Source: Minisyncoccota bacterium | GTDB taxonomy: Bacteria; Patescibacteriota; Minisyncoccia; Phycocordibacterales; UBA9973 | Reading direction: 5' to 3' | NCBI GenBank assembly: GCA_041663185.1 | Contig: JBAZQY010000002.1 | Span: forward strand, 152,496-216,495 | Length of the DNA stretch: 64,000 nt | In this document: positions 785 through 34,180 of the stretch, in pieces | Layout of the letters: each line of letters starts with the position of its first letter | Numbering within the stretch: the stretch's first letter is position 1 | Notes under the pieces: model-generated | What the model saw: the letters and a program-made list of their open reading frames with translations, nothing else | What the model was told of the DNA's origin: nothing | Database searches by the model: none | Translations under genes and position numbers: made by a program

Positions 785-840
785 AGAGACACTATATCAT
801 AAGGGTTTTTATTTGACTATTTATATGATAAACTCATCTT

Positions 841-1419
841 ATGGAGAAAAAACACATAATAACGATTGCTGGTAAGCTTGGAAGCGGAAAATCTTCAACT
901 TCTAAAAGAGTGGCTAATCTTTTAAATTATGAGAGAGTCTCTACTGGTGAGTTTATGCGATTGATGGCTGACAAAAAAGGAATCGCATTAGATGAATTAA
1001 GTAAAATAGCCGAAGCGGATATTTCCATAGATAAGCAATTAGATGATTATAATTTAGAAATAGGAAAAAAAGAAAATATTATTTTAGATTCTCGGCTTGG
1101 TTTTTATTTCATTCCTAATTCTTTTAAAGTATTTCTTGAGCTTGATCCTAATGTTGCCTCAGAAAGAATTCTAGAAGATAAAAAAACAAATCCTAATCGA
1201 CACACAGAGGCGACTGGAGTTTTTGATACAAAAGAAAGTATAATTGAAAGCATAAATAATCGTCTATCAAGCGAGAGAAGAAGATATAAACAGTTATATG
1301 GAATTAATGATTTAACGGCGCATGAAAATTTTGATTTGGTTATTGATACCTCTAAGATGCCGTTAGAAGAAGTCTCTCAGAAAATTATAGAAGAATATAA
1401 TAATTGGTTAAACAAATAA
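841..1419 (+). CDS. cytidylate kinase-like P-loop nucleotide kinase
   Basis: N-terminal Walker A motif (IAGKLGSGKSST), about 190 aa, with the overall shape of a (d)CMP kinase-like family. The assignment is from motif memory only. Confidence 0.55.
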   Translation: MEKKHIITIAGKLGSGKSSTSKRVANLLNYERVSTGEFMRLMADKKGIALDELSKIAEADISIDKQLDDYNLEIGKKENIILDSRLGFYFIPNSFKVFLELDPNVASERILEDKKTNPNRHTEATGVFDTKESIIESINNRLSSERRRYKQLYGINDLTAHENFDLVIDTSKMPLEEVSQKIIEEYNNWLNK

Positions 1420-1424
1420 ATAAG

Positions 1425-2822
1425 ATGAAAATACTAAGCGAATTATTAGAAGATATAAAAGTAATTGAAAGCCATGGAAATCTTGATGCTCGAGTGTCTT
1501 CTGTTTCGCTTAATTCAAAAACTATTGAACCGAGGTCATTGTTTGTCGCATTAGTTGGAAATGTCGTTGACGGACATATATTTATTGATGAAGTGGTTGA
1601 AAAAGGAGCTACTGTGGTAATTTATGAAAATGATCCCAAGGAGTTTAAGAGTGGCGTGACTTATTTGAAAGTGACTGATACTCATAGTGTTGTAGGAATA
1701 ATCGCTGATAATTTTTACGGGAATCCGTCTCGCAAGTTGAAATTAGTTGGAGTGACTGGCACAAACGGTAAGACTACAACAGTGACATTACTCCATCAAC
1801 TTTTTCGTAATTTAGGATATAAGGTAGGAATGATTGGGACAGTTGTTAATAAAATAAATGATAAATTTTATGAAGCTACTAGAACAACTCCGGACCCAGT
1901 TAGTTTGAATAAATTACTGGCCGAAATGGTAGATGAAGGTTGTGAATATTGTTTTATGGAAGTCTCATCTCATTCTGTCTGCGAAAAGAGAATTTCTGGA
2001 CTTTCTTTTGTTGGGGGTATATTTACAAATCTTACGCTTGATCATTTGGACTATCATAAAACAATAGATAATTATTGTAATGCCAAAAAAAGTTTTTTTG
2101 ATATTTTACCTGCGACAGGTTTTGCAATTGCAAATATTGATGACGAGAAAGGGGAGTATATACTAAGTACTACAAAAGCCCATAAATATACAATGAGTTT
2201 GAAACAAGAGGCAGATTTTAATGAACGACTTGAGACAAAACTAATCGGCGAATTTAATATGTATAATGTTTTAGGTGTATATGCTGTGGCTGTTTTACTC
2301 GGACAGGATAGGGAAAAAGTTAAAGAATTAATAAGGGAACTAGATGGAGCTCCAGGGAGATTCCAGGCAATTAAAAGCAAAAATAATATTACCGGAATTG
2401 TTGACTATGCTCATTCACCAGATGCCTTAGAGAATGTTTTGAAAACAATAAACCAAATGAAAGGAGATGGACGAGTTATTTCTGTTGTTGGGTGTGGCGG
2501 AGATCGAGATAAAAGTAAACGTCCAATTATGGCAAAGATTGGCTATGAAATGAGCGACATTCTTATCCTTACATCTGATAATCCAAGAAGTGAAAAACCT
2601 GAAGATATTTTAAGTGAAATGCAGAAGGGAATTCCGCTTGATGGTATAGATAAAGTTGAGATTATTATTGATCGGCGGATAGCAATTCAAAAGGCCTGTG
2701 AACTTGCCAAAGAAGGGGATTATATTTTAGTGGCCGGTAAGGGCCATGAAAATTATCAAGAAGTAAACGGAGTCAAAACCCATTTTGATGATATGGAAGA
2801 ATTAAAAAAATATTTGGAATAA
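1425..2822 (+). CDS. murE: UDP-N-acetylmuramoyl-L-alanyl-D-glutamate--2,6-diaminopimelate (or L-Lys) ligase MurE
   Basis: Mur ligase motifs GVTGTNGKTTT and DYAHSPDALENVL are present. The track ORF begins at a TTG at 1404, and the ATG at 1425 (MKILSELLED) is the more likely start. Confidence 0.9.
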   Translation: MKILSELLEDIKVIESHGNLDARVSSVSLNSKTIEPRSLFVALVGNVVDGHIFIDEVVEKGATVVIYENDPKEFKSGVTYLKVTDTHSVVGIIADNFYGNPSRKLKLVGVTGTNGKTTTVTLLHQLFRNLGYKVGMIGTVVNKINDKFYEATRTTPDPVSLNKLLAEMVDEGCEYCFMEVSSHSVCEKRISGLSFVGGIFTNLTLDHLDYHKTIDNYCNAKKSFFDILPATGFAIANIDDEKGEYILSTTKAHKYTMSLKQEADFNERLETKLIGEFNMYNVLGVYAVAVLLGQDREKVKELIRELDGAPGRFQAIKSKNNITGIVDYAHSPDALENVLKTINQMKGDGRVISVVGCGGDRDKSKRPIMAKIGYEMSDILILTSDNPRSEKPEDILSEMQKGIPLDGIDKVEIIIDRRIAIQKACELAKEGDYILVAGKGHENYQEVNGVKTHFDDMEELKKYLE

Positions 2823-2825
2823 ATT

Positions 2826-2859
2826 ATTATTTTGTCATTTTGCAAAATGACAAAATAAT
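2826..2859. promoter_or_regulatory. 34-bp perfect palindrome (attattttgtcattttgcaaaatgacaaaataat), candidate operator or hairpin between murE and the Cys-rich gene
   Basis: Perfect dyad symmetry was checked base by base. It lies 9 nt upstream of the ATG at 2868. A 21-nt copy of one half (attttgtcattttgcaaaatg) occurs at 6-26 inside tsaD. Confidence 0.4.
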
Positions 2860-2867
2860 CATAAAAA

Positions 2868-4538
2868 ATGGAAACAGAAAAAAGAATTTGTAAAAAATGC
2901 CAGCAGGAATTCATTTTAGACCAAGATGATTTTTCATTTTACGAAAAAATGAAAGTACCTGTACCTGAAATTTGTCCGGATTGCAGATTTAAAATGCGAG
3001 CAATGTGGAGGAATGAAACCACTTTATATTCAGGGCAGAAATGTGGTTTGTGTAATGATAGTATTATAACTGTCTATAATAGTAAGAATAATTTTAAGGT
3101 TTTTTGTTATAAATGTTTTTTATCTGACTCATGGGATGCGAAGGATTATGCAAAAAATTATAATAAGGAGGAATCTTTTTTGGGTCAATTTCATGATCTT
3201 TTTAGGAAAGTTCCAAAGAAAAATTTATCAATAGATTTATCAAGTGGTCCTATTATAAATACTTCATATGCGAATGGGGCAGGAGGTATGAAAAACTGCT
3301 ATATGGTTTTTAATGGTGGAGGCGGAGAGGATATGATGTATTGTCGTGGGATAATGAAAGCCAAAGAAATTAGTGATTGTTATTTTGGTGAAAACATAGA
3401 GTTATCGTATGAATGCATTCACATAAATAAGTCGACAGGTATTACTTTTGGAGATAGTATTGTCGGATGTGTTGATTGTATGTTTTTAAAAAATTGTAGT
3501 GGCCTTACTAATTGCTTTGGGTGTGTAAATTTAAGAAATAAAAGTCATTGTTGGTTTAATGAACAGCTCACTCGTGATGAATACACGGATAGGCTAAAAG
3601 AAATAAATGGAAGTTATTCTAAAATAGAAGAAATGAAAAAAAAGTTTTGTGATTTTTGTTTGTCGTTCTCTAATCGAGAAAATCATAATATAAAAGCTAT
3701 TGATTGTACGGGGGATTATTTATTTGATAGTAAGAATCTAAAAGAATCGTTTGAAGTAACTGAATCAGAAAATTGTAGATATCTTTGTTATACAAAAAAA
3801 ACAAACGATTCATTAGGGGTAATGGGTTTTGGAATAAAATCGGAACAATTGTTAGAAGTTGTATCTACTGGATATTCTAGTAACATAATATCTTCAAATG
3901 GTATCGATGGTTCTCAAAATATTATGTATTCAAATTCATTACATAACTGTCATGATTGTATTGGTTGTGATGGTCTTAAAAATGCTGAGTACTGTATTTT
4001 AAATAAACAATATAGTAAAGAAGAATATGAAAAGTTTAAAGAACACATAGTTAAAGAACTCACAGAATTGGGTATTCATGGGTTAATGATGCCTCCAGAA
4101 ATTGCTCCATTTGCTTATAATGAGACAATTGCTCAGGATAATATGCCTTTGACTAAAGAGGAAGCTATCGCAGAGGGGTTCAGATGGGAAGATGATATTC
4201 AGATGACGAAAGGGAAGGAAACATTGCAACAAGAAGCAATTCATGATCATATAAATGAAGTCAAAGATGAAATTACAAAAGAAATATTAAGGTGTATAAA
4301 TTGTGAACGGAATTATAAGATTACAGAACAAGAATTATTGTTTTACCGAAAAATGAAATTACCAATTCCAAGAAAATGCTTCTTTTGCCGCCATCAGGAT
4401 CGTATAAAAAGAAGAGGTCCGTATAAATTCTGGGATAGAAAATGTGACCATTGTGGAAAAGATATCAAAACCAATTACTCACCAAATAGTCCAGAGATTA
4501 TTTACTGTGAGGATTGTTATAAGCAGGAAGTAATATAA
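2868..4538 (+). CDS. large Cys-rich protein with N- and C-terminal zinc-ribbon-like CxxC pairs and internal Cys-repeat units; function unknown
   Basis: The 556-aa ORF carries many CxxC pairs. Similar terminal modules occur at both ends: CKKCQQEF..FYEKMKVPVPEICPDCR and CINCERNY..FYRKMKLPIPRKCFFCR..CDHCGKD..CEDC. Internal repeats such as NCFGCVNLRNKSHCWFNEQ and DCIGCDGLKNAEYCILNKQ are also present. It sits between murE and murD. Confidence 0.7.
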   Translation: METEKRICKKCQQEFILDQDDFSFYEKMKVPVPEICPDCRFKMRAMWRNETTLYSGQKCGLCNDSIITVYNSKNNFKVFCYKCFLSDSWDAKDYAKNYNKEESFLGQFHDLFRKVPKKNLSIDLSSGPIINTSYANGAGGMKNCYMVFNGGGGEDMMYCRGIMKAKEISDCYFGENIELSYECIHINKSTGITFGDSIVGCVDCMFLKNCSGLTNCFGCVNLRNKSHCWFNEQLTRDEYTDRLKEINGSYSKIEEMKKKFCDFCLSFSNRENHNIKAIDCTGDYLFDSKNLKESFEVTESENCRYLCYTKKTNDSLGVMGFGIKSEQLLEVVSTGYSSNIISSNGIDGSQNIMYSNSLHNCHDCIGCDGLKNAEYCILNKQYSKEEYEKFKEHIVKELTELGIHGLMMPPEIAPFAYNETIAQDNMPLTKEEAIAEGFRWEDDIQMTKGKETLQQEAIHDHINEVKDEITKEILRCINCERNYKITEQELLFYRKMKLPIPRKCFFCRHQDRIKRRGPYKFWDRKCDHCGKDIKTNYSPNSPEIIYCEDCYKQEVI

Positions 4539-4540
4539 TT

Positions 4541-5911
4541 ATGCAAAATTACAAACAACAATTTAAGGATAAGAAAATTACAATTATGGGATTGGGTATT
4601 TTGGGGAGAGGGGTGGGATATACAAAATTCTTGGCTGAATGTGGGGCTGATTTGATTGTGACAGATTTGAAAACGAAAGAACAACTTGCAACTTCAATAC
4701 AAGCATTAAAAAAGTTTAAAAATATTAAATTTGTTTTAGGTGAGCATCGGTTGGAAGATTTTATAAACAGAGATATGGTGATTAAAGCGGCAGGTGTTCC
4801 CATAGATTCTATTTACATAAAAGAGGCCAAGAAAAATAAAATCCCAGTTGAGATGGACGTGTCTCTTTTTGCTAAGTGTGCTCCTGGTGTAATGATAATC
4901 GGAGTGACGGGGACAAGAGGCAAATCAATGACGACAACTTTGATTTATCAAATATTGAGACAGAATATAAAAGACAACAATGTCTATGTGGGTGGTAATC
5001 TTCGTGGAGTTGCGACCTTACCACTTCTTAAAAAAGTAAAAGCGAGGGATATTTTAGTTTGTGAACTTGATTCATGGCAATTGCAGGGTTTCGGAGAAGC
5101 AAAGATTTCCCCACACATTTCAGTATTTACGACATTCATGCCTGATCATATGAATTATTATAAGAATTCGATGAAAGATTATTTTAATGATAAGGCAAAT
5201 ATTTTTAAGTATCAGAAAAAAAATGACGTACTAATTATTCGTCCAGGGATGAAGAAGTTTATAAATAAAAAAGAAGTTAAGGGTAAACTTGTAGTTATAA
5301 ATTCAGAAAAAGTAAAAAATTGGAAGTTCAATGTTCCAGGTATTCATCATCGAGAGAATTTAGCTTGTGCTGTGGCTGTGGCAAAGCAACTTGGTATTTC
5401 AGAGGTAAAGATTAAAAAATCAATTACGGATTTTAAAGATTTAGAAGGGCGGCTGCAACTTTTGCGAACGTATAAAGGAATAAAAATATATAATGACAAT
5501 AATGCGACAACCCCAGAAGCAACAATTGCTGGGATTGAAGCATTAGTTGACCAGCCCCGAACCCGGTTCAGGGCTAGCCCTGAACCGGGTTCGGGGCAAA
5601 GAAGAATAATTTTAATCTGTGGAGGTTCAGACAAGGGTCTTCCTCTTGATAATTTTGTTAAAACTGTAAATAAATATTGCAAAGCAGTAATTTTTCTTGA
5701 GGGGAGTGGTACAGAAAAATTACTGAGTAGTAAGCAGAAAGTAGTAGGTATTAAGGTAAAAACAATCAAAGAAGCGGTACAAGAAGCAATTAAACAAGCC
5801 AATAAAGGAGATATAATTTTGTTTTCTCCAGCGTTTGCATCGTTTGGAATGTTTAATAATGAATATGAACGTAACGATTTGTTTATGAAGATTATTAGAA
5901 GTTTAAAATAA
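4541..5911 (+). CDS. murD: UDP-N-acetylmuramoylalanine--D-glutamate ligase MurD
   Basis: N-terminal Rossmann motif (ITIMGLGILGRGVG) and Mur ligase P-loop (GVTGTRGKSMTTT) are present, with adjacent mur genes as context. Confidence 0.9.
   Translation: MQNYKQQFKDKKITIMGLGILGRGVGYTKFLAECGADLIVTDLKTKEQLATSIQALKKFKNIKFVLGEHRLEDFINRDMVIKAAGVPIDSIYIKEAKKNKIPVEMDVSLFAKCAPGVMIIGVTGTRGKSMTTTLIYQILRQNIKDNNVYVGGNLRGVATLPLLKKVKARDILVCELDSWQLQGFGEAKISPHISVFTTFMPDHMNYYKNSMKDYFNDKANIFKYQKKNDVLIIRPGMKKFINKKEVKGKLVVINSEKVKNWKFNVPGIHHRENLACAVAVAKQLGISEVKIKKSITDFKDLEGRLQLLRTYKGIKIYNDNNATTPEATIAGIEALVDQPRTRFRASPEPGSGQRRIILICGGSDKGLPLDNFVKTVNKYCKAVIFLEGSGTEKLLSSKQKVVGIKVKTIKEAVQEAIKQANKGDIILFSPAFASFGMFNNEYERNDLFMKIIRSLK
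5555..5596. repeat. 42-bp perfect GC-rich palindrome (ccccgaacccggttcaggg-ctag-ccctgaaccgggttcgggg) embedded in-frame in murD
   Basis: Both 19-nt arms and the 4-nt centre were verified. The local GC is far above the window background. It encodes PRTRFRASPEPGSG, which looks like an extra loop placed before the conserved IILICGGSDKG segment. Confidence 0.6.
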
Positions 5912-5915
5912 TTTT

Positions 5916-6536
5916 ATGAAAAAACAAATAATATTTATAAGAGGAGGAGAAGTGTTTGATAATATGGAAGACATGTATGAGTATTTAAGAACTGTAAAAT
6001 GCGATCCGTATAATAAGACAAAAGAGTGGAGGGATTGGATAATATGGGCACTTGAAGAATCTTATGATTTAATATGTCCGCTGATGCCAAACAAGCAGAA
6101 TGCTGATTACACAGCTTGGAAAATATGGTTTGAAAGACACTTCGAGTTTATTACAGATGATAATCCTATTTTGATAGGACATTCTTTAGGTGGCGCCTTT
6201 CTCCTTAAATATTTATCTGAAAATGGTTTTTCTAAAAAAATATTACAGTTACATTTAGTAGCACCTTATGTTGAAAATAATGGTATTTATTTAGAAAAAT
6301 TAAATACTTTTGCTTTTGATATTAAAAAAATAAATAAAATTAAAGATATGTGTAATGAAATACATCTTTGGCACTCAAGGGATGATAATTCTGTTCCTTT
6401 TTCTCACAGTGAGTTAGTTAAAAAAAATATTTCTACTGCAGAATTCCATATCTTTGATGACCGTGGGCATTTTCGACAACCTGCCTTCCCTGAGATATTA
6501 GAAGTAATAAATAAATCAATATATGAAAGAAATTGA
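5916..6536 (+). CDS. alpha/beta serine hydrolase, RBBP9/YdeN-like
   Basis: Nucleophile elbow GHSLGG, followed by a downstream acidic residue and His (SRDDNSVPF..DDRGHF). Size is about 200 aa. Confidence 0.6.
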   Translation: MKKQIIFIRGGEVFDNMEDMYEYLRTVKCDPYNKTKEWRDWIIWALEESYDLICPLMPNKQNADYTAWKIWFERHFEFITDDNPILIGHSLGGAFLLKYLSENGFSKKILQLHLVAPYVENNGIYLEKLNTFAFDIKKINKIKDMCNEIHLWHSRDDNSVPFSHSELVKKNISTAEFHIFDDRGHFRQPAFPEILEVINKSIYERN

Positions 6537-8095: not shown

Positions 8096-9469
8096 ATGGA
8101 TTTAGATTTATCCCTTGGCCGTAGTCATACGAACGAGGCAAAAATTAAAAATGTTCACTTTATTGGTATTGGTGGAATCGGTATTTCAGCGGTGGCGCGG
8201 ATGATGCTAGAGGAGGGGAAGAATGTTACCGGGCAGGATATGCAGGATGGGGAAATTGTTAATGAGCTTCGTTTACTCGGTATAGATATCAAAATTAGAC
8301 AATCATATGAAAATATTCCGAAAGATACAGATCTTGTAGTCTATACAATTGCTATCGAATATTATGACCCAGAATTATTTAAAAAACTGAAAGAAAGGAA
8401 TGATATAGCAATCAAATCTTATCCCGAAATGCTTGGGGTGATAAGTAAGGATAAATATACAATTGCAATTTGTGGAACTCATGGGAAGACTACAACAACA
8501 GGAATGATCTCACAAATTTTGATTGACGGTGGGAAAGACCCGATGGTGATTGTTGGAAGTTTATTAAAAGGTAAAACTAATTTTATTGCGGGTAAAAGTG
8601 ATTTGTTTGTAGTTGAGGCTTGTGAGTACCGAAGATCATTTTTGAATATTAATCCAAACGTTTTAGTTATTACAAATATTGATGAAGACCATTTGGATTA
8701 TTATAAAGATATAGAAGATATTAAAAATGCCTTCCATGAGATGGTGATGAAAGTACCAGAGGATGGATATGTAATTTGCAACCCAGATGATGAAAATATT
8801 TCGGATGTTATTAAGGGGATAAAGGCAAAAGTAATAAATTGGCAAGATTATTTTGATGCAGGTTTGAAATTAAAAATTCCTGGGATACATAATAAGAAAG
8901 ATGCCGCGGCGGCCATGGCCGCCGCGGCTACTCTTGGTATTTCTCAATCCTCTGCAAGGGGAGTCCTTGCAGAATTTCCGGGGACATGGAAACGTTTTGA
9001 ATTCAGGGGAAAACTTTCTAATGGAATACTTCTTTATGACGATTATGCTCATCATCCGACAGAAATTATGGCTACACTCGAAGGTTTTCGGGAATTGTAT
9101 CCAAAAACTGACGGCTGGAAAATCACAGTTATTTTCCAGCCACACCTATTTTCACGCACCAAATTACTTCTAGATGACTTTGCGAAAAGTTTTTCTGATG
9201 CTGATGAAGTTCTTGTTTTACCAATTTACTATGCTCGGGAAGTTGATGATGGAACAATAAGTTCAGAAATTTTAGCGGGGGAGATAAACAAACACACCAA
9301 CAATGCAAAATCTTTTTCAGATTTTAATGAAGCAGAAAAATCTCTGGAAGTCGGACCTGCCTCGCCAACGAGTCAAGGCGGGCTTCCAGAAATGGGTGAT
9401 AAAAATATTATTGTGACAATGGGGGCAGGAGAAGCTTCAAAAATTGGAGATTTCCTATTAAAAAAATAA
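8096..9469 (+). CDS. murC: UDP-N-acetylmuramate--L-alanine ligase MurC
   Basis: The sequence reads IGIGGIGISAVARMML, GTHGKTTTTGMI and DYAHHPTEI. The track ORF start at 7868 overlaps the divergent gene and contains only non-coding-looking sequence. The ATG at 8096 (MDLDLSLGRS) is preferred. Confidence 0.9.
   Translation: MDLDLSLGRSHTNEAKIKNVHFIGIGGIGISAVARMMLEEGKNVTGQDMQDGEIVNELRLLGIDIKIRQSYENIPKDTDLVVYTIAIEYYDPELFKKLKERNDIAIKSYPEMLGVISKDKYTIAICGTHGKTTTTGMISQILIDGGKDPMVIVGSLLKGKTNFIAGKSDLFVVEACEYRRSFLNINPNVLVITNIDEDHLDYYKDIEDIKNAFHEMVMKVPEDGYVICNPDDENISDVIKGIKAKVINWQDYFDAGLKLKIPGIHNKKDAAAAMAAAATLGISQSSARGVLAEFPGTWKRFEFRGKLSNGILLYDDYAHHPTEIMATLEGFRELYPKTDGWKITVIFQPHLFSRTKLLLDDFAKSFSDADEVLVLPIYYAREVDDGTISSEILAGEINKHTNNAKSFSDFNEAEKSLEVGPASPTSQGGLPEMGDKNIIVTMGAGEASKIGDFLLKK
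8903..8928. repeat. 26-bp perfect GC-rich palindrome (gccgcggcggccatggccgccgcggc) inside murC
   Basis: Verified self-complementary. It encodes the AAAAMAAAA stretch of the conserved Ala-rich MurC segment using only GC-rich Ala codons in a low-GC genome, and it contains NcoI-like and SacII-like cores. Confidence 0.5.
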
Positions 9470-9487: not shown

Positions 9488-10297
9488 ATGAAAAAATATT
9501 TTCTTTCCATACTAATCATAATATTGACCATCATCGCTTTTCCAATTTCTGCAGAAGTGGTGACTAATTCCGGATTTATTCCTGGGCAAATCTGGTACTC
9601 AAAAGATACTTTAGTTGAGGGAGAAACTGTAAATATCCATACGGCAATTTGGAATGGTGAGAAAGAATCGCTTTCTGTGAAGGTAGAATTTTATGACAAA
9701 AATGTTATTTTAGGAAGTAGAGATGTTGTCTTATCACCATCAGAATTGAAAGATGTATTTGTTCCCTGGAAGATTACCTCGGGAGACCATGTTATTTCTG
9801 CAAAAATTATCTCATCACTAGCTACTATTTCTGGGAAAAAAGAAAAAGTGACTCTTGATCGTGTGACAACCTCGACAGATAAACAATTTGTCCCAGTTGT
9901 CGTGAAGAACGCACAAGGTGAATCAGTCTCTGGAACAAGTTCCTTGAAAGATCAAATAGATAATGTCGTTCCTGATAAGGTTAGCACTTCTGTGGCCAAT
10001 GGTTTTACCGTAGTAGATAATTTTCGAGATAAAACATTCACGCAAGTCTCGACAGTTCGAGATGACACCCAAGAAGAAATAAATCTTCTGAAAACAAAAG
10101 AAAAAACAGTCGCTGAAACTTTGAGTACAAAAAACAATATTGAAGATGCCACCGAAAAACCAATTGCTTATATTAAACTTTTTATTTTTTCAATCCTGGC
10201 GCTCATTTTTGGGAATAAAATAATTTTTTATGGACTTCTGGCTATTGTCGTTTTCTTTGTATTGCGTTATTTATATCGCAAAATTAGAAATAGATAA
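9488..10297 (+). CDS. secreted/membrane-anchored hypothetical protein (N-terminal signal peptide, C-terminal TM)
   Basis: The N-terminus is hydrophobic (MKKYFLSILIIILTIIAFPISA), and a C-terminal TM helix precedes a basic tail. It lies within the division/cell-wall cluster. Confidence 0.55.
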   Translation: MKKYFLSILIIILTIIAFPISAEVVTNSGFIPGQIWYSKDTLVEGETVNIHTAIWNGEKESLSVKVEFYDKNVILGSRDVVLSPSELKDVFVPWKITSGDHVISAKIISSLATISGKKEKVTLDRVTTSTDKQFVPVVVKNAQGESVSGTSSLKDQIDNVVPDKVSTSVANGFTVVDNFRDKTFTQVSTVRDDTQEEINLLKTKEKTVAETLSTKNNIEDATEKPIAYIKLFIFSILALIFGNKIIFYGLLAIVVFFVLRYLYRKIRNR

Positions 10298-27416: not shown

Positions 27417-27514
27417 AAATAACAAATAAACCCAAGGGTTGTAAAAATTGTATTTTTTTGTTATTTTAAGTGAGTAATAATTCGTAATTCCTAATTGGTA
27501 ACTATTAATTATTT

Positions 27515-27580
27515 TGGCCCCATCGTCTAACGGTTAGGACATCGCCTTTGAAAGGTTGAAGTTTGGGATGGGACCCAAAC
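27515..27580 (+). pseudogene. degenerate tRNA-like element: exact copy of the first 33 nt of the downstream tRNA-Glu, then diverged
   Basis: GGCCCCATCGTCTAACGGTTAGGACATCGCCTT is identical to 27709-27741. The following sequence does not form a canonical anticodon/T-arm/acceptor (a GTTTGGG/CCCAAAC hairpin replaces them). Confidence 0.4.
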
Positions 27581-27708
27581 AAAAAACCTGTGATAGTATT
27601 ATATGAGTTATAACGAAATAGAATACAGAACAGGTGTACTGCTTCTGTAAGAAGGTAAATTCTGAGGTCGATTCGAATCGAACTTTGATTAAAATAAAAT
27701 AAAAAATT

Positions 27709-27780
27709 TGGCCCCATCGTCTAACGGTTAGGACATCGCCTTCTCAAGGCGGTAATCAGAGTTCGATTCTCTGTGGGGTC
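27709..27780 (+). tRNA. tRNA-Glu (anticodon CTC)
   Basis: A 72-nt cloverleaf was folded by hand. It has a 7-bp acceptor stem (GGCCCCA/TGGGGTC), a D arm (GTCT..GGAC), an anticodon stem TCGCC/GGCGG with loop TTCTCAA, and a T arm CAGAG-TTCGATT-CTCTG. No CCA is encoded. Confidence 0.8.
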
Positions 27781-27832
27781 ACAAACGCGGTATTCAAAAA
27801 GAGTGCACTTCTGCACTCTTTTTCGCGTTTGT
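27781..27832 (+). terminator. nested hairpin terminator after the tRNA
   Basis: caaacgcg...aagagtgca-cttc-tgcactctt-ttt...cgcgtttg. Confidence 0.5.
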
Positions 27833-28032
27833 GAAGACGGAAGCATATTTTTCTAGTAAGAAAAATAGCTGAGTCCGGGGCTGGAAAATTTGCTTTTGAC
27901 GAAAAGCAAATTATTGTGGCTCACATAGATTATGCATGCGAAGCATACAAAATTTATTTTAACGTTGGAGTTTGAGAAAATTAAAAAGCCACTACTATAA
28001 TTCGTGGCTTATTTTAGCAACCTACGGACACG

Positions 28033-28386
28033 TTAATTTTTCGAGATAACCTCCAGCAAGGGTTTGAGTCTTTCGGAGCGCTGAAGTTTTACTGTCCATT
28101 CGGTTTTTTCTTCAGGGTTTAATTTCCTGTATCCCTTAATTCCCACATGCTTTCCCTTGACCTTTTCGTTGGAAATATATAACCGGTCTGTCCAGACGTC
28201 ACTTACAGGATAGGGAATTTTAGAGTTTTCCAGTAAATCCACCAGCTTGAAACCAAGCAACATCGTAGCGCCAGTAATTGATCCAACTTCCTTTTGCTTT
28301 ACAAAATATGGTTCTTTACGACCATCTTCAAACTCAATCAAAATGATAGAGTTCTCATCAATTTCTGAATGAATTAAGTATTTCAT
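28033..28386 (-). CDS. hypothetical protein (117 aa)
   Basis: Clean ORF at the edge of the defence island, with no motif recognised. Confidence 0.5.
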   Translation of the reverse strand: MKYLIHSEIDENSIILIEFEDGRKEPYFVKQKEVGSITGATMLLGFKLVDLLENSKIPYPVSDVWTDRLYISNEKVKGKHVGIKGYRKLNPEEKTEWTVKLQRSERLKPLLEVISKN

Positions 28387-28516
28387 TTTGTGAGAATTTA
28401 GTTAAACACTTTTTTCTTCACATTACCTCATATTTCGTATTTTGGCAAGATAGGGAAGTAAATACCCATATATTCTTTACAATTTGATTCCAATTTTGTC
28501 CCACCTGAGGTTCATC

Positions 28517-28545
28517 TAACGGGAATAGCAAGAACCGTTCTTGCT
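28517..28545. promoter_or_regulatory. 29-bp near-perfect palindrome upstream of the C-protein gene (candidate C-box/operator)
   Basis: gaatagcaagaac-c-gttcttgctattc, with 13-nt arms perfectly complementary. It lies about 70 nt upstream of the preferred C-gene start, between divergent genes, so it is not a terminator. Confidence 0.4.
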
Positions 28546-28617
28546 ATTCAGGGGGTTTGGTGAGGAATGCGGGGGCGACCCTGTATTGTATTATATGGCA
28601 ATTTGGAATATTACGCA

Positions 28618-28860
28618 ATGGAATATTATAATAATCTTATGCCTAGAGCAATATATACAAAAGACCATAATGAAATTGTTAAGCGCTTAGTAAAAGCACG
28701 ACTAGAGTCTGGACTAGGACAAGTTGAAGTTGCTAAAAAATTAGGGAAAACTCAATCATATCTTTCTAAAATAGAATCCGGACAAAGAAGATTTGATGTT
28801 TTGCAATTAAAAGAATTTGCAAAACTTTATAAAAAACCATTAGACTATTTTGTTAAATAA
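28618..28860 (+). CDS. restriction-modification controller (C) protein, XRE-family HTH
   Basis: About 80 aa from the in-frame ATG at 28618 (MEYYNNLMPRAIY...). HTH_XRE pattern: GLGQVEVAKKLGKTQSYLSKIESGQR. Its 3' end overlaps the next gene, as in C-R operons. The track start at 28567 is an alternative. Confidence 0.7.
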   Translation: MEYYNNLMPRAIYTKDHNEIVKRLVKARLESGLGQVEVAKKLGKTQSYLSKIESGQRRFDVLQLKEFAKLYKKPLDYFVK

Positions 28861-28864
28861 ATAT

Positions 28865-29428
28865 ATGAAAAAAAATAAAATTACTGTAACGATTAATAAG
28901 AAACAAATCAAGCTTGATATCTTAAAAATAGAAAGCTCTGATAAAGCTAAATTACGAACAATATTTAAGCGTTGGTTGGAACTTAGTAATTTACTTAAAA
29001 GTCTTGGTTCAAGAGGGGTAAATATACCAGAAGGACTTACAGAAAGTTTATTTTGCTTGGAAATGAATTCTGCTAGGGTTATTAAAGCATATAATTCAAA
29101 AGGTTCATTTGATACAATCAACAGGAATAATAATAAAAGACAACAGGTAAAGGCAACAAGTAGTAGTGGTCCTACTTCATTTGGACCAAATTCTTTTTGG
29201 GATGAAAATGAGTTATATTTAATGGATTTTGTTGGAAAGGATGGAATAATAGATGGAACTTTTAGTATTTATAGAATTCTTGATAAATATATTTATCTCT
29301 CTAAGGTAAATAAAACTGAAAGATTATCAGATCAACAGGCCCAAAAAAGAAGACCCAGGATGGATTTAAGGAAAGATGTTGTAATAAAATACAAATTAAA
29401 ACCAATTAAAAAAGGTTCTATCGTTTAG
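28865..29428 (+). CDS. candidate type II restriction endonuclease (small, basic, no recognisable fold)
   Basis: 187 aa directly after and overlapping the C gene, and convergent with the methyltransferase. The assignment is positional inference only. Confidence 0.35.
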   Translation: MKKNKITVTINKKQIKLDILKIESSDKAKLRTIFKRWLELSNLLKSLGSRGVNIPEGLTESLFCLEMNSARVIKAYNSKGSFDTINRNNNKRQQVKATSSSGPTSFGPNSFWDENELYLMDFVGKDGIIDGTFSIYRILDKYIYLSKVNKTERLSDQQAQKRRPRMDLRKDVVIKYKLKPIKKGSIV

Positions 29429-31006
29429 TTACTCCATTGCTTTCATCATCTGTTTAGCCACAGCTTCTACTACTGGAACACTCACAGAGTTTCCAAATTG
29501 TTTATACAATGCAGAATCTGCTAAAGGAGGTAATTTAAAACTATTTGGAAATCCTTGTATTCTTGAACACTCAAGGGGTGTTAATTTTCTTATTCCTTTC
29601 TTATCTTTAATTATCGGAACATTGTGTCCACCCATTCCCATGTTAGCTGTAAGTGTAGGGCAAACTCCACTTTTATTCTCTCTGACATATTGTCTTCTCC
29701 ATTGATATACTTTTCCTTCTTCTTTTACATCTTTTTTTAGTTTTTCAAAAAGAGGCTTTCCGTTGTAATAGTATTTCTCAGAAACATTTTTCTCTAATAA
29801 ATCAGTAATTTTTACATTAAGTTTAATAGGCTCAGGAAATGTAAATTTATCTGAATACTCTTTATTTTTAAACCCAACGATATATATACGTTCACGATTT
29901 TGAGGGACATTACCATATTCCATTGTATTTAATACTTTTGCTTTAACATGATATCCTAAATCTTTTAGAGTTTCTTCAATTATTCTAAATGTGTTGCCTT
30001 CGTCATGGCTTTTTAGATTTTTTACATTTTCAAGTAAAAATCCTTCTGGATTTTTTGCTTTAATAATTTTGGCTATATCAAAGAATAAATTACCTCTATT
30101 TTTTGGATCATCAAATCCTTTACGATATCCTGCAATAGAAAAAGCCTGACAAGGGAAACCTCCTAATATAAAATCAAATTCTGGTAAATCATTAATCCCT
30201 ATTTTTCTTATATCTTCAACTATCAATTTTGAATCTTTAAAATTAAGATCATATGTTTGCTTACAGGGTGCATCAAAATCATTTGCAAAAACTGTTTTAA
30301 ATCCTGCATTTTCAAATCCCATTCTTATGCCACCTATTCCAGCAAATAGATCTATTGTTTTAAATCCGTGTTTTGTTTTCTTTTGAGGTTTTACTTCCTG
30401 TTCTATTTTTGGATTACTTATAATCTGAACAACTACACCACGAACTTCAACTTCTTTTCTGTAAAAAGGAAGCATTGATTGATTCCTAGGTTCTAGTCTA
30501 AATCTATTTTTATCTCGATATAGTTTTTTTAATGTTGCTTCATTGTCGTCAATAATAGCAACTACGGTTTGTCCGTTTTCAGCCACTGATTGCTTTTTTA
30601 TTATTACAATATCCCCATTAAATATTCCTTCTTCTATCATACTGTCTCCTTGGACTCTTAGTGCATAATAATCTTTAGGACTTTTAATATTTGAGTTAAT
30701 TATTGAAATGGCATCTTGTTTATCTTCAATCGCTTCTATTGGATAACCTGCTGCGATAGTTCCCATAACTGGTATTTCAATGATTTGAAAATTTTCTTTA
30801 TTAGTTTCTATACTTCTTGATAAATTATCAGACTTTGAAATGTAGCCTTTTTCTTTTAAAGCGTTTACATGTTCATGTACAGTAGAAATTGCTTTTAATT
30901 TAAATTTCTTTCGTATCTCGTCATTAGTAGGAGATATACCATTTTCATTGATATATGAGTTAATAAAATCCAGTATTAATTTTTGTTTTTTTGTTAGTGT
31001 TTGCAT
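29429..31006 (-). CDS. LexA repressor (HTH + S24 peptidase) fused to a DNA (cytosine-5)-methyltransferase
   Basis: N-terminus: MQTLTKKQKLILDFI..ISPTNDEIRKKF..ISTVHEHVNALKEKGYI (LexA DNA-binding domain), Ala-Gly site (IAAGYP), S24 catalytic Ser (VQGDSM) and Lys (EATLKKLYR). C-terminus: m5C-MTase motifs I (DLFAGIGGIRMGF), IV (GGFPCQAFS), VI (ENVKNL), VIII (QNRERIYIVG), IX (RKLTPLECSRIQGFP) and X (QFGNSV). The track ORF extends 21 codons upstream to 31069. The ATG at 31004-31006 matches the canonical LexA start. Confidence 0.85.
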   Translation of the reverse strand: MQTLTKKQKLILDFINSYINENGISPTNDEIRKKFKLKAISTVHEHVNALKEKGYISKSDNLSRSIETNKENFQIIEIPVMGTIAAGYPIEAIEDKQDAISIINSNIKSPKDYYALRVQGDSMIEEGIFNGDIVIIKKQSVAENGQTVVAIIDDNEATLKKLYRDKNRFRLEPRNQSMLPFYRKEVEVRGVVVQIISNPKIEQEVKPQKKTKHGFKTIDLFAGIGGIRMGFENAGFKTVFANDFDAPCKQTYDLNFKDSKLIVEDIRKIGINDLPEFDFILGGFPCQAFSIAGYRKGFDDPKNRGNLFFDIAKIIKAKNPEGFLLENVKNLKSHDEGNTFRIIEETLKDLGYHVKAKVLNTMEYGNVPQNRERIYIVGFKNKEYSDKFTFPEPIKLNVKITDLLEKNVSEKYYYNGKPLFEKLKKDVKEEGKVYQWRRQYVRENKSGVCPTLTANMGMGGHNVPIIKDKKGIRKLTPLECSRIQGFPNSFKLPPLADSALYKQFGNSVSVPVVEAVAKQMMKAME

Positions 31007-31137
31007 ATTGCTAAATAATATATGTTTTGCTACAATTCTATTATAACCGAATATATACCGAAAGTGCAAGCAGTTACCTATAGATATTATAAATAACTGT
31101 TACAAGTCGAAATTTATTAAAAAATAAAACGATTTTT

Positions 31138-32040
31138 ATGTCATCAATTATTCAAGATTTACAAATTGAAGCTACAGATCAAAGTAACTCATGCTCAGAT
31201 TTATTAAGAAAAGCGAAGATTGTTGCTGTTAAACTCGATTTAGAAGAGTTTGCAGAGTGGATAGAAAAAGAATTAAATGGATACAAAGGTTTCTCAAATA
31301 AAGACCTCCCAGATTATAGAATAGTAAGTGGAGAACCAAAAGCTTGGAATCCATATCATGGCTGGCAACCTATTTTGTTTGGTGATACAGAGGCTGGAGA
31401 TATCATGGCAAAAAGAGGCGTAATGCAACCCATCGGTGAACTTGATGATCTTGCAAAAACAGATTCAAGTACTTTCATGATTGATTACAATACTTCTGCC
31501 AAAAAACAAATAATGGAGGCTATTGGCTTTGAAACAGATATAAAATTTATGATAGGTAGAACTGCCGTTACTGGGATCTTGGATGGTGTACGAAATTTAA
31601 TACTTGATTGGGCTTTAAGATTAGAAAAGGCAGGTGTAGCAGGAGAAGGTATTTCTTTTTCTAAAGAAGATAAAGAGAGAGCAAAAATAACTGGTGATAT
31701 CTATAATGTAGGTCATATCGAAAATTTTGCTGGTACATTAGGAAATGTGTCTGATGATGTTACTCTTAATGTTCATCAAATTAATACGAAATCAATAGAA
31801 GAAATAAAAAAATTAACTGATCAAATTAATAAATATACCCCAGATATTGACTTACCAATAGAAAGAAAAAGTGAAGTTAATGATATAGTTACAGAATTAA
31901 AGAATGAGCTTTCTAAAAAATCACCGGAACAATCCAATATAAAATTGGCATTAAGGTCGTTAAAAACTATTTTTGAAGCTGTAGCAGGAAATGTTATTGC
32001 ACAAGGTATTATTGTTGAGATTAGTAAGTATATTCACTAA
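31138..32040 (+). CDS. AbiTii-like abortive infection protein
   Basis: The N-terminal pattern IIQDLQIEATD..CSDLLRKAKIVAVKLDLEEFAEWIEKELNGY resembles the AbiTii family signature. This is recalled from memory rather than searched. Confidence 0.55.
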   Translation: MSSIIQDLQIEATDQSNSCSDLLRKAKIVAVKLDLEEFAEWIEKELNGYKGFSNKDLPDYRIVSGEPKAWNPYHGWQPILFGDTEAGDIMAKRGVMQPIGELDDLAKTDSSTFMIDYNTSAKKQIMEAIGFETDIKFMIGRTAVTGILDGVRNLILDWALRLEKAGVAGEGISFSKEDKERAKITGDIYNVGHIENFAGTLGNVSDDVTLNVHQINTKSIEEIKKLTDQINKYTPDIDLPIERKSEVNDIVTELKNELSKKSPEQSNIKLALRSLKTIFEAVAGNVIAQGIIVEISKYIH

Positions 32041-32044
32041 TTAA

Positions 32045-32689
32045 ATGAAATCCATAAAAGATTTTATCAATTTATTAAATCAAAACCTTGGCTTAATTCA
32101 AGCAATTTCAACAATTATACTTGTCATTATTACAGCATGGTATGCTATTTCTACTAAACGAATGGCAAATTTAATGAGAGCACAAATAACATCTAAAATT
32201 AAGATAGAAAATACATCAATAGGTTCACAGTTTAATGAAGATTGGATATTAAAACACGGTTTTGATAAAAATAGTTTCTTAACAATAAAAGCTATTTTTG
32301 ATATCAGAAATGAAGGAAATGCCTCAGGTAGTATTTATAAACCGTCTTTAGAGATTAGTCTTCCTGTAATTAATTTATCTTTTAAAATTGGTCCAAAAAC
32401 TAAATCCTATGAAGATTATAATTTTAAATCAAATGGCAATATGACTTCTTATGATACTAGAACGATAAATCATGGAACTTCAATATTTTTGCAAGGCGGT
32501 GGTTCAGAAAGAATAGAACTTAATTATCACTTTGACATCAATACAGATGATAAGCTAAATTTTACAAATGAAGCTAAAAAGAATCCGTCTAATATTAAAT
32601 ATTATTTAATTACAATCGATAATTTTGGAAGAGAACATAAGATTTTAGTTTCTGATATAAAAGAAGAAAGAAATTTTGGACTTAAATAA
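32045..32689 (+). CDS. membrane-anchored partner protein of the AbiTii-like gene (N-terminal TM, beta-rich body)
   Basis: Separated from the upstream gene by 4 nt. The TM helix is LGLIQAISTIILVIITAWYAIS. Confidence 0.45.
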   Translation: MKSIKDFINLLNQNLGLIQAISTIILVIITAWYAISTKRMANLMRAQITSKIKIENTSIGSQFNEDWILKHGFDKNSFLTIKAIFDIRNEGNASGSIYKPSLEISLPVINLSFKIGPKTKSYEDYNFKSNGNMTSYDTRTINHGTSIFLQGGGSERIELNYHFDINTDDKLNFTNEAKKNPSNIKYYLITIDNFGREHKILVSDIKEERNFGLK

Positions 32690-32696
32690 TACATAA

Positions 32697-32731
32697 AAAG
32701 AAAGCTCCCAAAGAAAGCGGGAGCTTTCTTT
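32697..32731. terminator. bidirectional hairpin terminator (13-bp stem)
   Basis: aaagaaagctccc-aaagaaagc-gggagctttcttt between convergent genes. Confidence 0.6.
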
Positions 32732-32748
32732 GGGAGCGATGTTTTAAT

Positions 32749-33402
32749 TTACTTCGTAACTAACCATGCACGTGACCAGATTCGGCAAATGTGATAATAG
32801 TCATTTTCAAGCATGAAACCGAAAGACAATTCTTCGCGCATGAAATGTCCATCTCCACCAAAAAGTCCACTGAGTCCTTTTTCTTTGTCTTGCGTAAATG
32901 AAGTACCCCAACGCTTACGTTCACTTTCGATAAATAGCCAGAGAGTTTCTACGACGGTCATTTGTTGATCAACGAAATTATCATATTCGTTTTCGTCTTT
33001 TATTGCACCGAACAAATAACGCAATCCAAATTTGGGAACAACCCTAATTTGCGTAATATAACCATCTTTGCCTGGTTTTTCAGATTCAGCACCAAATAAT
33101 GCAAAATCTTTTCCTGGATTAACAACCTGAGCAGATTGAATATCCATTATGCGCACCAAAGCTTCAAAGTCTGCTTTTGTAATGGAGTTATCGAAATAAA
33201 CAATTCCTCCACAAGCATCTTGTTCTGGGGCTCCTAAAAATGGATTCCCGTCATTTCTTTTTTGATAACCATAAAAACTGTTACCCATTGGAGCAAATTT
33301 TGAAAGATCTCCTGGTTCAACTTTAAGTTTATTATCGGAATAGATTAGTGGTGAAATACGAACTTTATCACCCATGTCAAAAATAATTCTTGTCGTTTCC
33401 AT
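32749..33402 (-). CDS. hypothetical protein (217 aa)
   Basis: Clean ORF on the minus strand at the right edge of the defence island, with no motif recognised. Confidence 0.5.
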   Translation of the reverse strand: METTRIIFDMGDKVRISPLIYSDNKLKVEPGDLSKFAPMGNSFYGYQKRNDGNPFLGAPEQDACGGIVYFDNSITKADFEALVRIMDIQSAQVVNPGKDFALFGAESEKPGKDGYITQIRVVPKFGLRYLFGAIKDENEYDNFVDQQMTVVETLWLFIESERKRWGTSFTQDKEKGLSGLFGGDGHFMREELSFGFMLENDYYHICRIWSRAWLVTK

Positions 33403-33579
33403 GTTAATAACATTTTAGATTTAATTGATTATCACAAAAGACTTTTATAAATCTTCTCTAATAATCAATCAAATCTAATTTCAAAGAACTAACCTTATCT
33501 ATACATTATACTCCTTTTTGAGTTAAATGTCAAGCTCTGAAACCCCCTATATTTAAGCCCTATTTGTTATAATCTATAT

Positions 33580-34137
33580 ATGTCAGATGAAATCACACCA
33601 AAGGAAGAAGTAACGGTAGAAGCTCCAATTGAGCCTGTTCCCGCTTCTGTAAAAGACTCCAGCGAGGCAATGTCTGAGCCTATAGAAACTATTCCCTCAG
33701 AACCAGAGATTCCAGCTGTTGAACCAAAACCAACTCTAAATTCCACTATGGAATCGGGTGCAACGGCTCAAATACCAGGAAATGAGCCGTTGGACACACC
33801 AGAGGAGAAACCTCTGGCTCCGTCTGAACCTAAAAAAGAAATCCCATTAGAGCCAACGAGTCCACAAGTGAACCCTGCCTCTAATGGGACAGGGAAAAAT
33901 CTAGCTCGTGAGTTACTTGTACAAGCTAAAAATGCAATCCAATCTAGAAAAAGAAAAAAGTTGGATAAAATTATGACTTTGTTTGCGAAGCAAACAAAGA
34001 TAACAAACGACGAAGTTGAGAAACTTCTTCATGTCTCGGATGCAACAGCAACTCGGTATTTATCGCAACTAGAAAAAGAAGGAAAAATAAAACAAAACGG
34101 AAAAATAGGAAAATCTGTATTTTATTTCAGAATTTAA
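33580..34137 (+). CDS. Pro/Glu/Ser-rich protein with a C-terminal winged-helix DNA-binding domain
   Basis: Low-complexity PE-rich N-terminal half. The C-terminus reads KITNDEVEKLLHVSDATATRYLSQLEKEGKIKQNGKIGKSVFY, which is wHTH-like. Confidence 0.5.
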   Translation: MSDEITPKEEVTVEAPIEPVPASVKDSSEAMSEPIETIPSEPEIPAVEPKPTLNSTMESGATAQIPGNEPLDTPEEKPLAPSEPKKEIPLEPTSPQVNPASNGTGKNLARELLVQAKNAIQSRKRKKLDKIMTLFAKQTKITNDEVEKLLHVSDATATRYLSQLEKEGKIKQNGKIGKSVFYFRI

Positions 34138-34180
34138 TTTCAGTCTTTAAATACTAATCTTTTCGTGTTATAATCAATAA

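Follow-up and report, generated by a model that had tools for sequence, protein, structure and literature searches.

A probable defence hot spot of separately moving modules between tRNA-Glu and rsmI in a Paceibacterota genome

The window analysed here is the whole 64,000-nucleotide stretch of contig JBAZQY010000002.1 and, by the names under which identical proteins are on record, comes from a metagenome-assembled genome of Candidatus Paceibacterota, in the candidate phyla radiation (CPR). Bacteria of the CPR (Patescibacteria) have tiny genomes and few recognised defence systems. Our subject is the segment between a tRNA-Glu gene and rsmI, which holds a restriction-modification (R-M) system whose methyltransferase is fused to a complete LexA, an abortive-infection (Abi) gene of the AbiTii family, and a gene for a rare 214-amino-acid (aa) membrane protein. 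An earlier reading made from the letters alone (the sequence-only reading) had described the cluster as a compact defence island beside a tRNA. Every open reading frame (ORF) that it named is present in the ORF list of the window at the coordinates and on the strand claimed, and the tRNA-Glu and the duplicated tRNA half both lie where it had placed them (ARAGORN, Rfam and a repeat search). The genes and features are listed below from left to right; L-numbers, here and throughout, are labels of comparison loci.

27516-27555, plus strand: copy of the 5' half of tRNA-Glu, found by repeat search; not a functional tRNA
27675-27691, minus strand: inverted relic of the tRNA-Glu variable region and T-arm, 17 nt, 94% complementary to 27753-27769
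27710-27782, plus strand: tRNA-Glu(CTC), called by ARAGORN and Rfam; the left landmark, with an orthologous tRNA by rsmI in L011 and L012
28033-28386, minus strand: 117-aa orphan ORF of native-like GC content
28523-28549, no strand: perfect 13+1+13 palindrome GAATAGCAAGAAC-C-GTTCTTGCTATTC (27 bp), in the divergent promoter region that separates the 117-aa ORF from the C gene; a candidate operator
28589-28630, no strand: imperfect palindrome, TGGAATATTA twice, directly upstream of the C start and C-box-like
28639-28860, plus strand: C (controller) protein with an XRE-type helix-turn-helix (HTH), 73 aa; HTH_3 match at 6e-13; ORF open from 28567, start taken from public records
28865-29428, plus strand: type II restriction endonuclease (R) of the Bsp6I family, 187 aa; ORF open from 28850, start taken from public records
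29429-31006, minus strand: 5-methylcytosine (m5C) methyltransferase (M) with a complete N-terminal LexA, 525 aa; ATG at 31006, ORF open to 31069
31138-32040, plus strand: AbiTii-family abortive-infection protein, 300 aa, with the AbiTii N-domain at residues 3-183 and an AbiTi-like C-terminal part at 219-296
32045-32689, plus strand: 214-aa protein of a tiny defence-associated family, with a membrane helix at its N-terminus and an Ig-like beta-sandwich
32704-32737, no strand: bidirectional terminator with a 15-bp stem, between the AbiTii operon and the convergent 217-aa gene
32749-33402, minus strand: 217-aa protein of a widely conserved CPR family, with its own promoter and not linked to defence
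33580-34137, plus strand: Pro/Glu-rich protein with a conserved C-terminal winged helix-turn-helix (wHTH); co-occurs with the 214-aa family in L009, L094 and L095
34181-34870, plus strand: rsmI, first gene of the conserved right flank

The right flank is syntenic across many Paceibacteria, from rsmI through genes for a small membrane protein and 409-aa, 405-aa and 145-aa proteins and beyond; to the left of rsmI, relatives keep no conserved gene order. In the two closest species representatives, L012 and L011, whose rsmI is respectively 82% and 79% identical to that of the window, the tRNA-Glu(CTC) stands 180 nt from rsmI (L012) or is separated from it by one pilin-like gene (L011), in both on the strand opposite to the window's relative to rsmI. 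None of the window genes between 28033 and 34137 is present in either of them, and about 100 nt on the 3' side of the window tRNA-Glu are still homologous to L012. With respect to the rsmI flank the region thus looks accessory, as had been proposed; the cupin gene, which had been offered as the conserved flank on the left, was recovered in no relative examined. The extent first given to the cluster, 28033-33402, was too short, as the variable segment continues to 34180 and takes in the wHTH gene. In L016, a more distant relative (rsmI 67% identical), the DNA upstream of rsmI (1-6500) corresponds to window 58-63.7 kb in inverted orientation, which marks the junction upstream of rsmI as a recurrent point of large-scale rearrangement.

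The R-M system and the AbiTii-family gene both match Pfam and PADLOC profiles, as the sequence-only reading had expected. The clustering of these two recognised defence systems in the lowest-GC stretch of the window exceeds chance: the 5.4 kb concerned have a GC content of 0.31 against a mean of 0.342 (standard deviation 0.017), which puts them in the 1.7% tail. The low value is carried by the C-R-M genes (0.298), the AbiTii gene (0.31) and the 214-aa gene (0.256, the lowest of the region), and native-like values are found for the 117-aa gene (0.379), the 217-aa gene (0.37) and rsmI (0.375).

One of the modules was found by itself in L106, a 13-kb contig from another metagenome. Its LexA-methyltransferase is 92% identical in amino acid sequence to that of the window and its Bsp6I-family endonuclease just 42% (window 29429-31006 against L106 5468-7609). 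L106 has no C gene and no AbiTii, 214-aa or 117-aa gene, and its module is flanked on one side by an SDR gene and on the other by tRNA-Gln, LOG, CTP synthase (PyrG) and FtsEX. At the nucleotide level, only window 29252-31076 is homologous (85% over 1.8 kb); the homology ends in the intergenic region between the methyltransferase and AbiTii genes, from which it follows that the R-M unit moves alone and that its junction with the AbiTii module lies near 31076. The uneven conservation of the two enzymes suggests that an R (or C-R) cassette was replaced beside a conserved M.

We consider it probable that the segment from about 27783 to 34180 is an accessory, recombination-prone defence hot spot made of separately moving modules, rather than one integrated element or one multi-gene system. 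Since no integrase turned up among the ten proteins of 26.3-34.1 kb scanned with Pfam or was noticed in the ORF list for 16.6-46 kb, and the tRNA 3' end has no second copy in the window, we describe the region as a variable hot spot at a breakpoint of synteny rather than as an integrase-borne island. It is a real but ordinary small defence hot spot, with R-M and Abi genes of known kinds, and offers two modest novelties: the LexA-methyltransferase fusion and the defence-associated membrane protein family.

The R-M module, from about 28390 to 31076, is by its profile matches a type II system of the Bsp6I kind, most likely with GCNGC as its target. The endonuclease matches Pfam RE_Bsp6I at 1.9e-8 (34.7 bits, cut-off 25) and PADLOC REase_II at 3.1e-20, and the name given to it at NCBI is that of a Bsp6I family enzyme; a PDB sequence search with it returned no significant match. 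The HTH_3 protein stops 4 nt before R, and its PADLOC Control_protein matches are weak (E 0.006-0.009). Bsp6I itself cleaves at GCNGC. Under a maximal-order Markov model, GCNGC is the most depleted palindrome of the NN-N-NN form tested, with 29 occurrences in the window against 66.5 expected (observed/expected 0.44, z = -4.6), a depletion consistent with prolonged exposure to a restriction system specific for this site. A single short GC-rich repeat at 8903-8924 accounts for six of the sites, which overlap, so that the independent sites number fewer than 29. Over the whole window the most depleted 4-bp palindrome is GATC (122 observed against 204 expected, observed/expected 0.60, z = -5.7), which hints at exposure to a second, GATC-specific restriction system not located in this region.

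The most unusual single feature of the locus is the LexA-methyltransferase fusion. The methyltransferase part matches DNA_methylase over the full profile (1.9e-94) and TIGR00675 dcm with 347 bits, and is 53-55% identical to m5C enzymes of plasmids and phages. The closest plasmid methyltransferase, that of Streptococcus thermophilus pST64987, has an annotated Bsp6I-family endonuclease beside it; this is the one inspected plasmid with an endonuclease next to the homolog. The first ~200 residues from the annotated start are a LexA (LexA_DNA_bind 9.8e-17; Peptidase_S24 2.3e-29, profile 1-116 of 116) and score 178 bits against the TIGR00498 lexA equivalog (cut-off 111, profile 1-201 of 203). Read by eye, the protein has the Ala-Gly cleavage site (IAAGYP), the serine (GDSM; GNSM in L106) and the lysine (ATLKKL), whose counterparts in E. 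coli LexA are presumably A84-G85, S119 and K156. Such a fusion was absent among at least 5000 plasmid matches and 1653 phage matches, and full-text literature searches returned no report of one. The 64-kb window holds no LexA other than the domain of the methyltransferase. In L016 (18786-19355), L023 and L027, a separate gene for a 189-aa LexA-like protein lies about 9 kb downstream of rsmI; the syntenic position in the window is without one.

The 28523-28549 palindrome may be the operator of the LexA domain, since its GAAC/GTTC half-sites recall the LexA boxes of Gram-positive bacteria. The palindrome core, CAAGAACCGTTCTTG, is present as a single copy in the window and as two copies next to the R-M module of L106 (4437-4465 and 5306-5338), which has no C gene; a weaker form lies in intergenic DNA of L100-L103 (L100 9700-9718).

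Module 2 is the AbiTii gene (31138-32040), which we read as a self-contained single chain. The AbiTii assignment of the sequence-only reading is confirmed by Pfam PF18864 (2e-43, 149 bits, cut-off 27.6) and PADLOC AbiTii (1.9e-47), and residues 219-296 match PADLOC AbiTi (7.9e-8) and also the C-terminus of PDC-M14B; a PDB sequence search gave no significant match. Relatives number 3495 among 1.84 billion cluster representatives, 673 of them at E <= 1e-30. The N-domain with its C-terminal tail is the common form of the family, because the best 150 relatives are nearly all 290-310 aa long and align end to end. In an alignment of 48 full-length homologs the conserved residues W41, E45, G48, P58, R61 and R152 all fall in the N-domain, and the sole conserved C-terminal feature is the terminal (I)LEGAAGNxxAxGI helix. 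The Rx4-6H motif of HEPN proteins is absent: no R or H is conserved after residue 175 in the 48 sequences, and there is no HEPN family match in Pfam. On plasmids of Rhizobium, Vibrio and Brevibacillus (three contexts), homologs of about 294-301 aa stand alone, with no downstream gene closer than ~330 nt, among Abi, cyclic-oligonucleotide-based anti-phage signalling (CBASS), toxin-antitoxin, reverse-transcriptase and recombinase genes. In the account of Anantharaman et al. 2013 (PMC3710099), the AbiTii domain is an N-terminal module about 180 aa long, marked by a conserved glutamate, which other bacteria have fused to HEPN domains of the c2405 or Ymh type, and lactococcal AbiT requires both AbiTi, which resembles an endoribonuclease domain, and AbiTii (2026 review, PMC13064643). 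By its domain matches, the window protein is a single chain of AbiTii domain and AbiTi-like tail, and neither the split lactococcal form nor an AbiTii-HEPN fusion.

The gene for the 214-aa protein starts 4 nt past the AbiTii stop. Its product has one strong hydrophobic helix (residues 17-35, Kyte-Doolittle 2.15), and its AlphaFold model, of moderate confidence (predicted local distance difference test score, pLDDT, 70), consists of a long N-terminal helix and an Ig-like beta-sandwich, a fold that matches only generic Ig-like structures. The basic residues that follow the helix suggest, by the positive-inside rule, that the beta-sandwich would be cytoplasmic. No significant match was obtained in Pfam, NCBIfam or PADLOC, and PHROGs gave one insignificant match of unknown function (E 0.012). 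The family comprises 11 clusters among 5.8 billion proteins and a few metagenome loci, about 15 loci in all, with identities of 45-82% and the shared motifs FDxRNEGNASGSxYKP, YDTRTINHG and FLQGG; the window contains no paralog of it or of the 217-aa family. Nucleotide similarity around the gene is limited to the ORF (32054-32690, 81%), and the sequences upstream of it at different loci are unrelated right up to the stop codon that precedes the ATG by 2-8 nt. A gene on the same strand lies upstream at 10 of 10 loci, with a gap of 2-8 nt at 7 of the 10; in L007 and L098 the gap is 72-116 nt. The genes found upstream are these:

Window: AbiTii
L003 to L006: type IIG enzyme followed by a 199-aa protein that carries an RNGSAH motif
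L009 and L096: trypsin-like protease with PADLOC RT-Protease/LmuA-like matches
L095: type III mod/res and, beyond them, an OLD/AriA-like ATPase
L007: ResIII helicase followed by a 111-aa protein
L098: PDC-S57, EcoRI-like methylase and GmrSD_N/HNH nuclease
L099: PDC-S06, then a zinc-ribbon protein
L008: small protein with two transmembrane helices
L010 and L094: gene of unknown function

In 7 of 9 contexts PADLOC or Pfam identifies the neighbours as defence genes, and AbiTii was seen upstream at no locus other than the window. At four other loci, too, the GC content of the 214-aa gene is low and resembles that of the defence cargo. Taken together, distribution and composition characterise the 214-aa gene as what appears to be a rare, accessory, defence-associated gene and not a partner of AbiTii; as module 3 it would be co-transcribed with AbiTii yet be an independent low-GC accessory gene rather than a dedicated partner. 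In a few related Paceibacterota it recurs as the final cistron after many different defence genes, and the Pro-rich wHTH gene often comes next. The 199-aa protein encoded between the MmeI-type IIG enzyme and the 214-aa gene (L003 9398-9997, also L004-L006) has no Pfam or PADLOC match, and its RNGSAH motif (Rx4H) is of the kind typical of HEPN RNases.

Of the two other unknowns that the sequence-only reading had put forward as defence candidates, the 217-aa gene has to be struck from the list. Its relatives form at least 248 clusters of the same length at 48-88% identity, with source names that include Sungbacteria and Nomurabacteria. The closest homologs lie among genes for aminoacyl-tRNA synthetases, DnaB, RecR, LepA and MurJ, or for kinases and a peptidase, with no defence genes near; that reading had itself said that housekeeping links would count against its proposal. 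The protein has no significant family match in Pfam, PADLOC, NCBIfam or PHROGs, and a PDB search with the family profile gave nothing significant. By its spread, the gene appears to be a native CPR gene that happens to lie here, and no defence candidate by association. It has a perfect sigma-70-type promoter (TTGACA-17-TATAAT, 33533-33505, minus strand) and a leader in which 33415-33444 and 33449-33478 form a 30-nt inverted repeat; the L100 homolog is preceded by a conserved version of this leader (9780-9888). A 238-aa protein of L009 that we considered as a further homolog proved to be a homolog of the wHTH protein instead. The 117-aa protein finds only itself among 5.8e9 proteins and belongs to no family in Pfam, PADLOC, NCBIfam or PHROGs; its ORF is probably a real gene, to judge from how long it stays open in AT-rich intergenic DNA and from strand skews that fit the minus strand. 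In L003 a 117-aa gene lies downstream of the 214-aa gene, and it is unrelated to this ORF (E 0.078). What the comparisons bear out of the proposal that embedded unknowns are defence candidates is the 214-aa gene, and that as a member of a defence-associated family and not as the AbiTii partner.

The wHTH gene directly follows the 214-aa gene in L094 and L095, and follows it after an insertion in L009 and in the window. Over these four loci the C-terminal 70 residues are near-invariant and the Pro/Glu-rich N-terminal part varies, with protein lengths from 185 to ~280 aa. No copy of the gene was detected at those loci of relatives that carry rsmI, among them L011 and L012, and an exact-protein look-up found the protein as called not to be on record.

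At the left border, the 5'-half copy of tRNA-Glu lies 194 nt upstream of the tRNA (start to start) and shares its first 25 nt without a mismatch; there are 2 copies in 64 kb against 0 expected by chance. The copy is without a T-arm or a 3' acceptor strand and is called by neither ARAGORN nor Rfam, on which grounds we rejected an intron-containing or alternative tRNA. The 5' flank of the copy resembles the flank of the tRNA in relatives, and the intact tRNA has a different 5' flank and the ancestral 3' flank. The region from 27490 to 27790 looks like a recombination scar.

How far this locus might instead be a classical integrase-mediated island inserted in the tRNA-Glu gene, as the duplicated tRNA fragment might suggest, can be judged from this border. 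The duplicated 5' half with its ancestral-looking 5' flank and the inverted T-arm relic are what such an insertion might leave, and related modules also lie beside tRNAs (tRNA-Gln in L106 and L098, tRNA-Ile in L009). However, what is duplicated is the 5' half, 154 nt (end to start) upstream of the intact gene and not at the far end of the segment, where no repeat of the tRNA 3' end is found: the 3' 25-mer occurs once in the window even with up to 3 mismatches. There is no integrase or recombinase among the ten proteins of 26.3-34.1 kb searched with Pfam, and none was noticed in the ORF list for 16.6-46 kb, most of which went unscanned. With ~100 nt downstream of the tRNA still homologous to L012 as well, we hold an insertion of this type to be highly improbable. 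An unlikely alternative is that there is no defence island at all but a synteny breakpoint with lineage-specific genes, the 214-aa and wHTH genes being native flank genes of one small genus whose neighbours come and go. The loss of synteny upstream of rsmI in all relatives, the inverted match in L016, the joint recurrence of the 214-aa and wHTH genes in L009, L094 and L095, and the lack of an integrase or of an att-like repeat would all suit it, but two bona fide defence systems are present, the genes that vary beside the 214-aa gene are overwhelmingly defence genes, the family is far too rare for a core gene, and the GC content of the 214-aa gene, the lowest here, matches defence cargo and not housekeeping genes in four other loci.

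The remaining alternatives concern what the 214-aa protein does. That it forms with AbiTii a dedicated two-gene abortive-infection system like lactococcal AbiTi/AbiTii, with the membrane protein as effector, is very unlikely in our judgement. In its favour, the two genes share their strand and their terminator, are separated by 4 nt and have no strong promoter between them, and lactococcal AbiT does need two genes (PMC13064643). Yet a conserved pair, as proposed by the sequence-only reading, did not emerge: every other 214-aa locus has a different gene upstream, AbiTii is solitary in the three plasmids inspected, an AbiTi-like part is already fused to the AbiTii C-terminus, and no PADLOC model, AbiTi included, matches the 214-aa protein. 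Unlikely, too, is the idea that the protein is a portable, generic membrane module that works with the defence gene in front of it, whatever its kind, perhaps by tethering or gating the upstream effector at the membrane, in which case the AbiTii pair would be one instance of a new modular class. It draws on the same-strand gene upstream at all ten loci, the short gaps at seven of them in front of unrelated genes, the defence neighbours in 7 of 9 contexts, an association that holds from 82% down to 45% identity, and the basic residues after the helix that in the family alignment suggest a cytoplasmic beta-sandwich. Type IIG and type III R-M systems have no known need of a membrane partner, though, and the domain is a generic Ig-like sandwich without catalytic or pore-forming features; the gaps in L007 and L098 are wide, and the contexts are maybe not independent, with several loci sharing downstream wHTH or S49 genes.

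The reading that we prefer, a mosaic hot spot of separately moving modules, has its own points against it. Insertion and rearrangement are inseparable here because the available relatives are distant (rsmI 79-82%), keep only the right flank and have the tRNA-Glu inverted. No strain-level presence/absence polymorphism was found: exact-protein look-ups returned only short contigs of the strain, identical in sequence, and the points where these stop, the tRNA repeat (~27539) and the palindromic terminator (32724), are assembly breaks and not polymorphism. A genuine modular partner would be expected to sit as close to its upstream gene as the 214-aa gene does, at 2-8 nt. The case for the candidate operator is weak, since in L106 and L100-L103 the palindrome is also present at sites away from R-M genes, and the differences in its outer arms are symmetric (compensatory), as in an RNA or DNA hairpin.

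If the modules work as their domains suggest, the C protein probably times or limits R expression, and the LexA domain probably represses transcription at a palindromic operator. RecA-stimulated self-cleavage would then release repression by LexA-M and couple R-M expression to DNA damage. AbiTii, by analogy with the lactococcal system, would abort infection once triggered, with the N-terminal AbiTii domain as a possible sensor and the C-terminal AbiTi-like helical region as a possible output. The furthest-reaching version of these ideas, which we entertain without expecting it to hold, is that the 214-aa family is a previously unrecognised portable last-cistron component of CPR defence operons with a shared membrane-level function, behind AbiTii, HEPN-like, trypsin-like protease, type IIG/III R-M, GmrSD/HNH and PDC-S06 genes and, separately, that the LexA-M fusion makes the R-M system respond to RecA-sensed DNA damage. 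One lead worth keeping is the methyltransferase fused to a seemingly cleavable LexA, which would couple R-M control to the SOS signal. A very small membrane protein family that recurs as the tail gene of unrelated defence operons is a second such lead, and the mosaic hot spot shows that CPR bacteria still exchange defence modules in the usual way. The practical value of the analysis is mostly negative: the 217-aa gene and the "AbiTii partner" should not be listed as defence candidates on adjacency alone.

Compared with known systems, the locus resembles defence islands beside tRNA genes in its two clustered systems, its low GC, a content that varies among relatives and the bordering tRNA; it differs in having no integrase or att repeat, a single conserved flank, modules with separate distributions and at least one native non-defence gene (that of the 217-aa protein). 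The 214-aa protein resembles membrane-anchored Ig-like/DUF4352-like beta-sandwich proteins and archaeal pilin/FlaF/FlaG-like proteins in structure only, and differs from the pilin/FlaF/FlaG-like proteins in its 16-residue leader before the helix, the absence of Glu5 and of a pilin-type signal, and charges that suggest a cytoplasmic domain. With lactococcal AbiT the AbiTii protein shares a strong full-length AbiTii-domain match with E45 and the arginines, a match of the last 80 residues to PADLOC AbiTi, and homologs in defence and mobile neighbourhoods, but it is one 300-aa chain rather than two genes, and no separate AbiTi gene is present; unlike the AbiTii-HEPN (c2405/Ymh) fusions, it lacks the HEPN signature. 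As in R-M systems of the Bsp6I type with a C protein, a Bsp6I-family R lies next to an m5C methyltransferase, an XRE-type HTH gene and a palindrome precede R, and the surrounding genome is depleted of GCNGC; in contrast to them, the window methyltransferase bears a complete N-terminal LexA, and the sister copy in L106 is without a C gene and has an R of 42% identity. In methyltransferases of the SsoII/EcoRII kind, an N-terminal HTH autoregulates the R-M operon. The window protein is like these in having a DNA-binding domain N-terminal to an m5C methyltransferase within a divergent/convergent R-M locus, where self-repression is plausible. It differs from them in that the fused module is a full LexA and a separate C protein is present too, and since this LexA has its cleavage site and its Ser and Lys, the regulator of the window could be one that is removable by RecA-stimulated self-cleavage.

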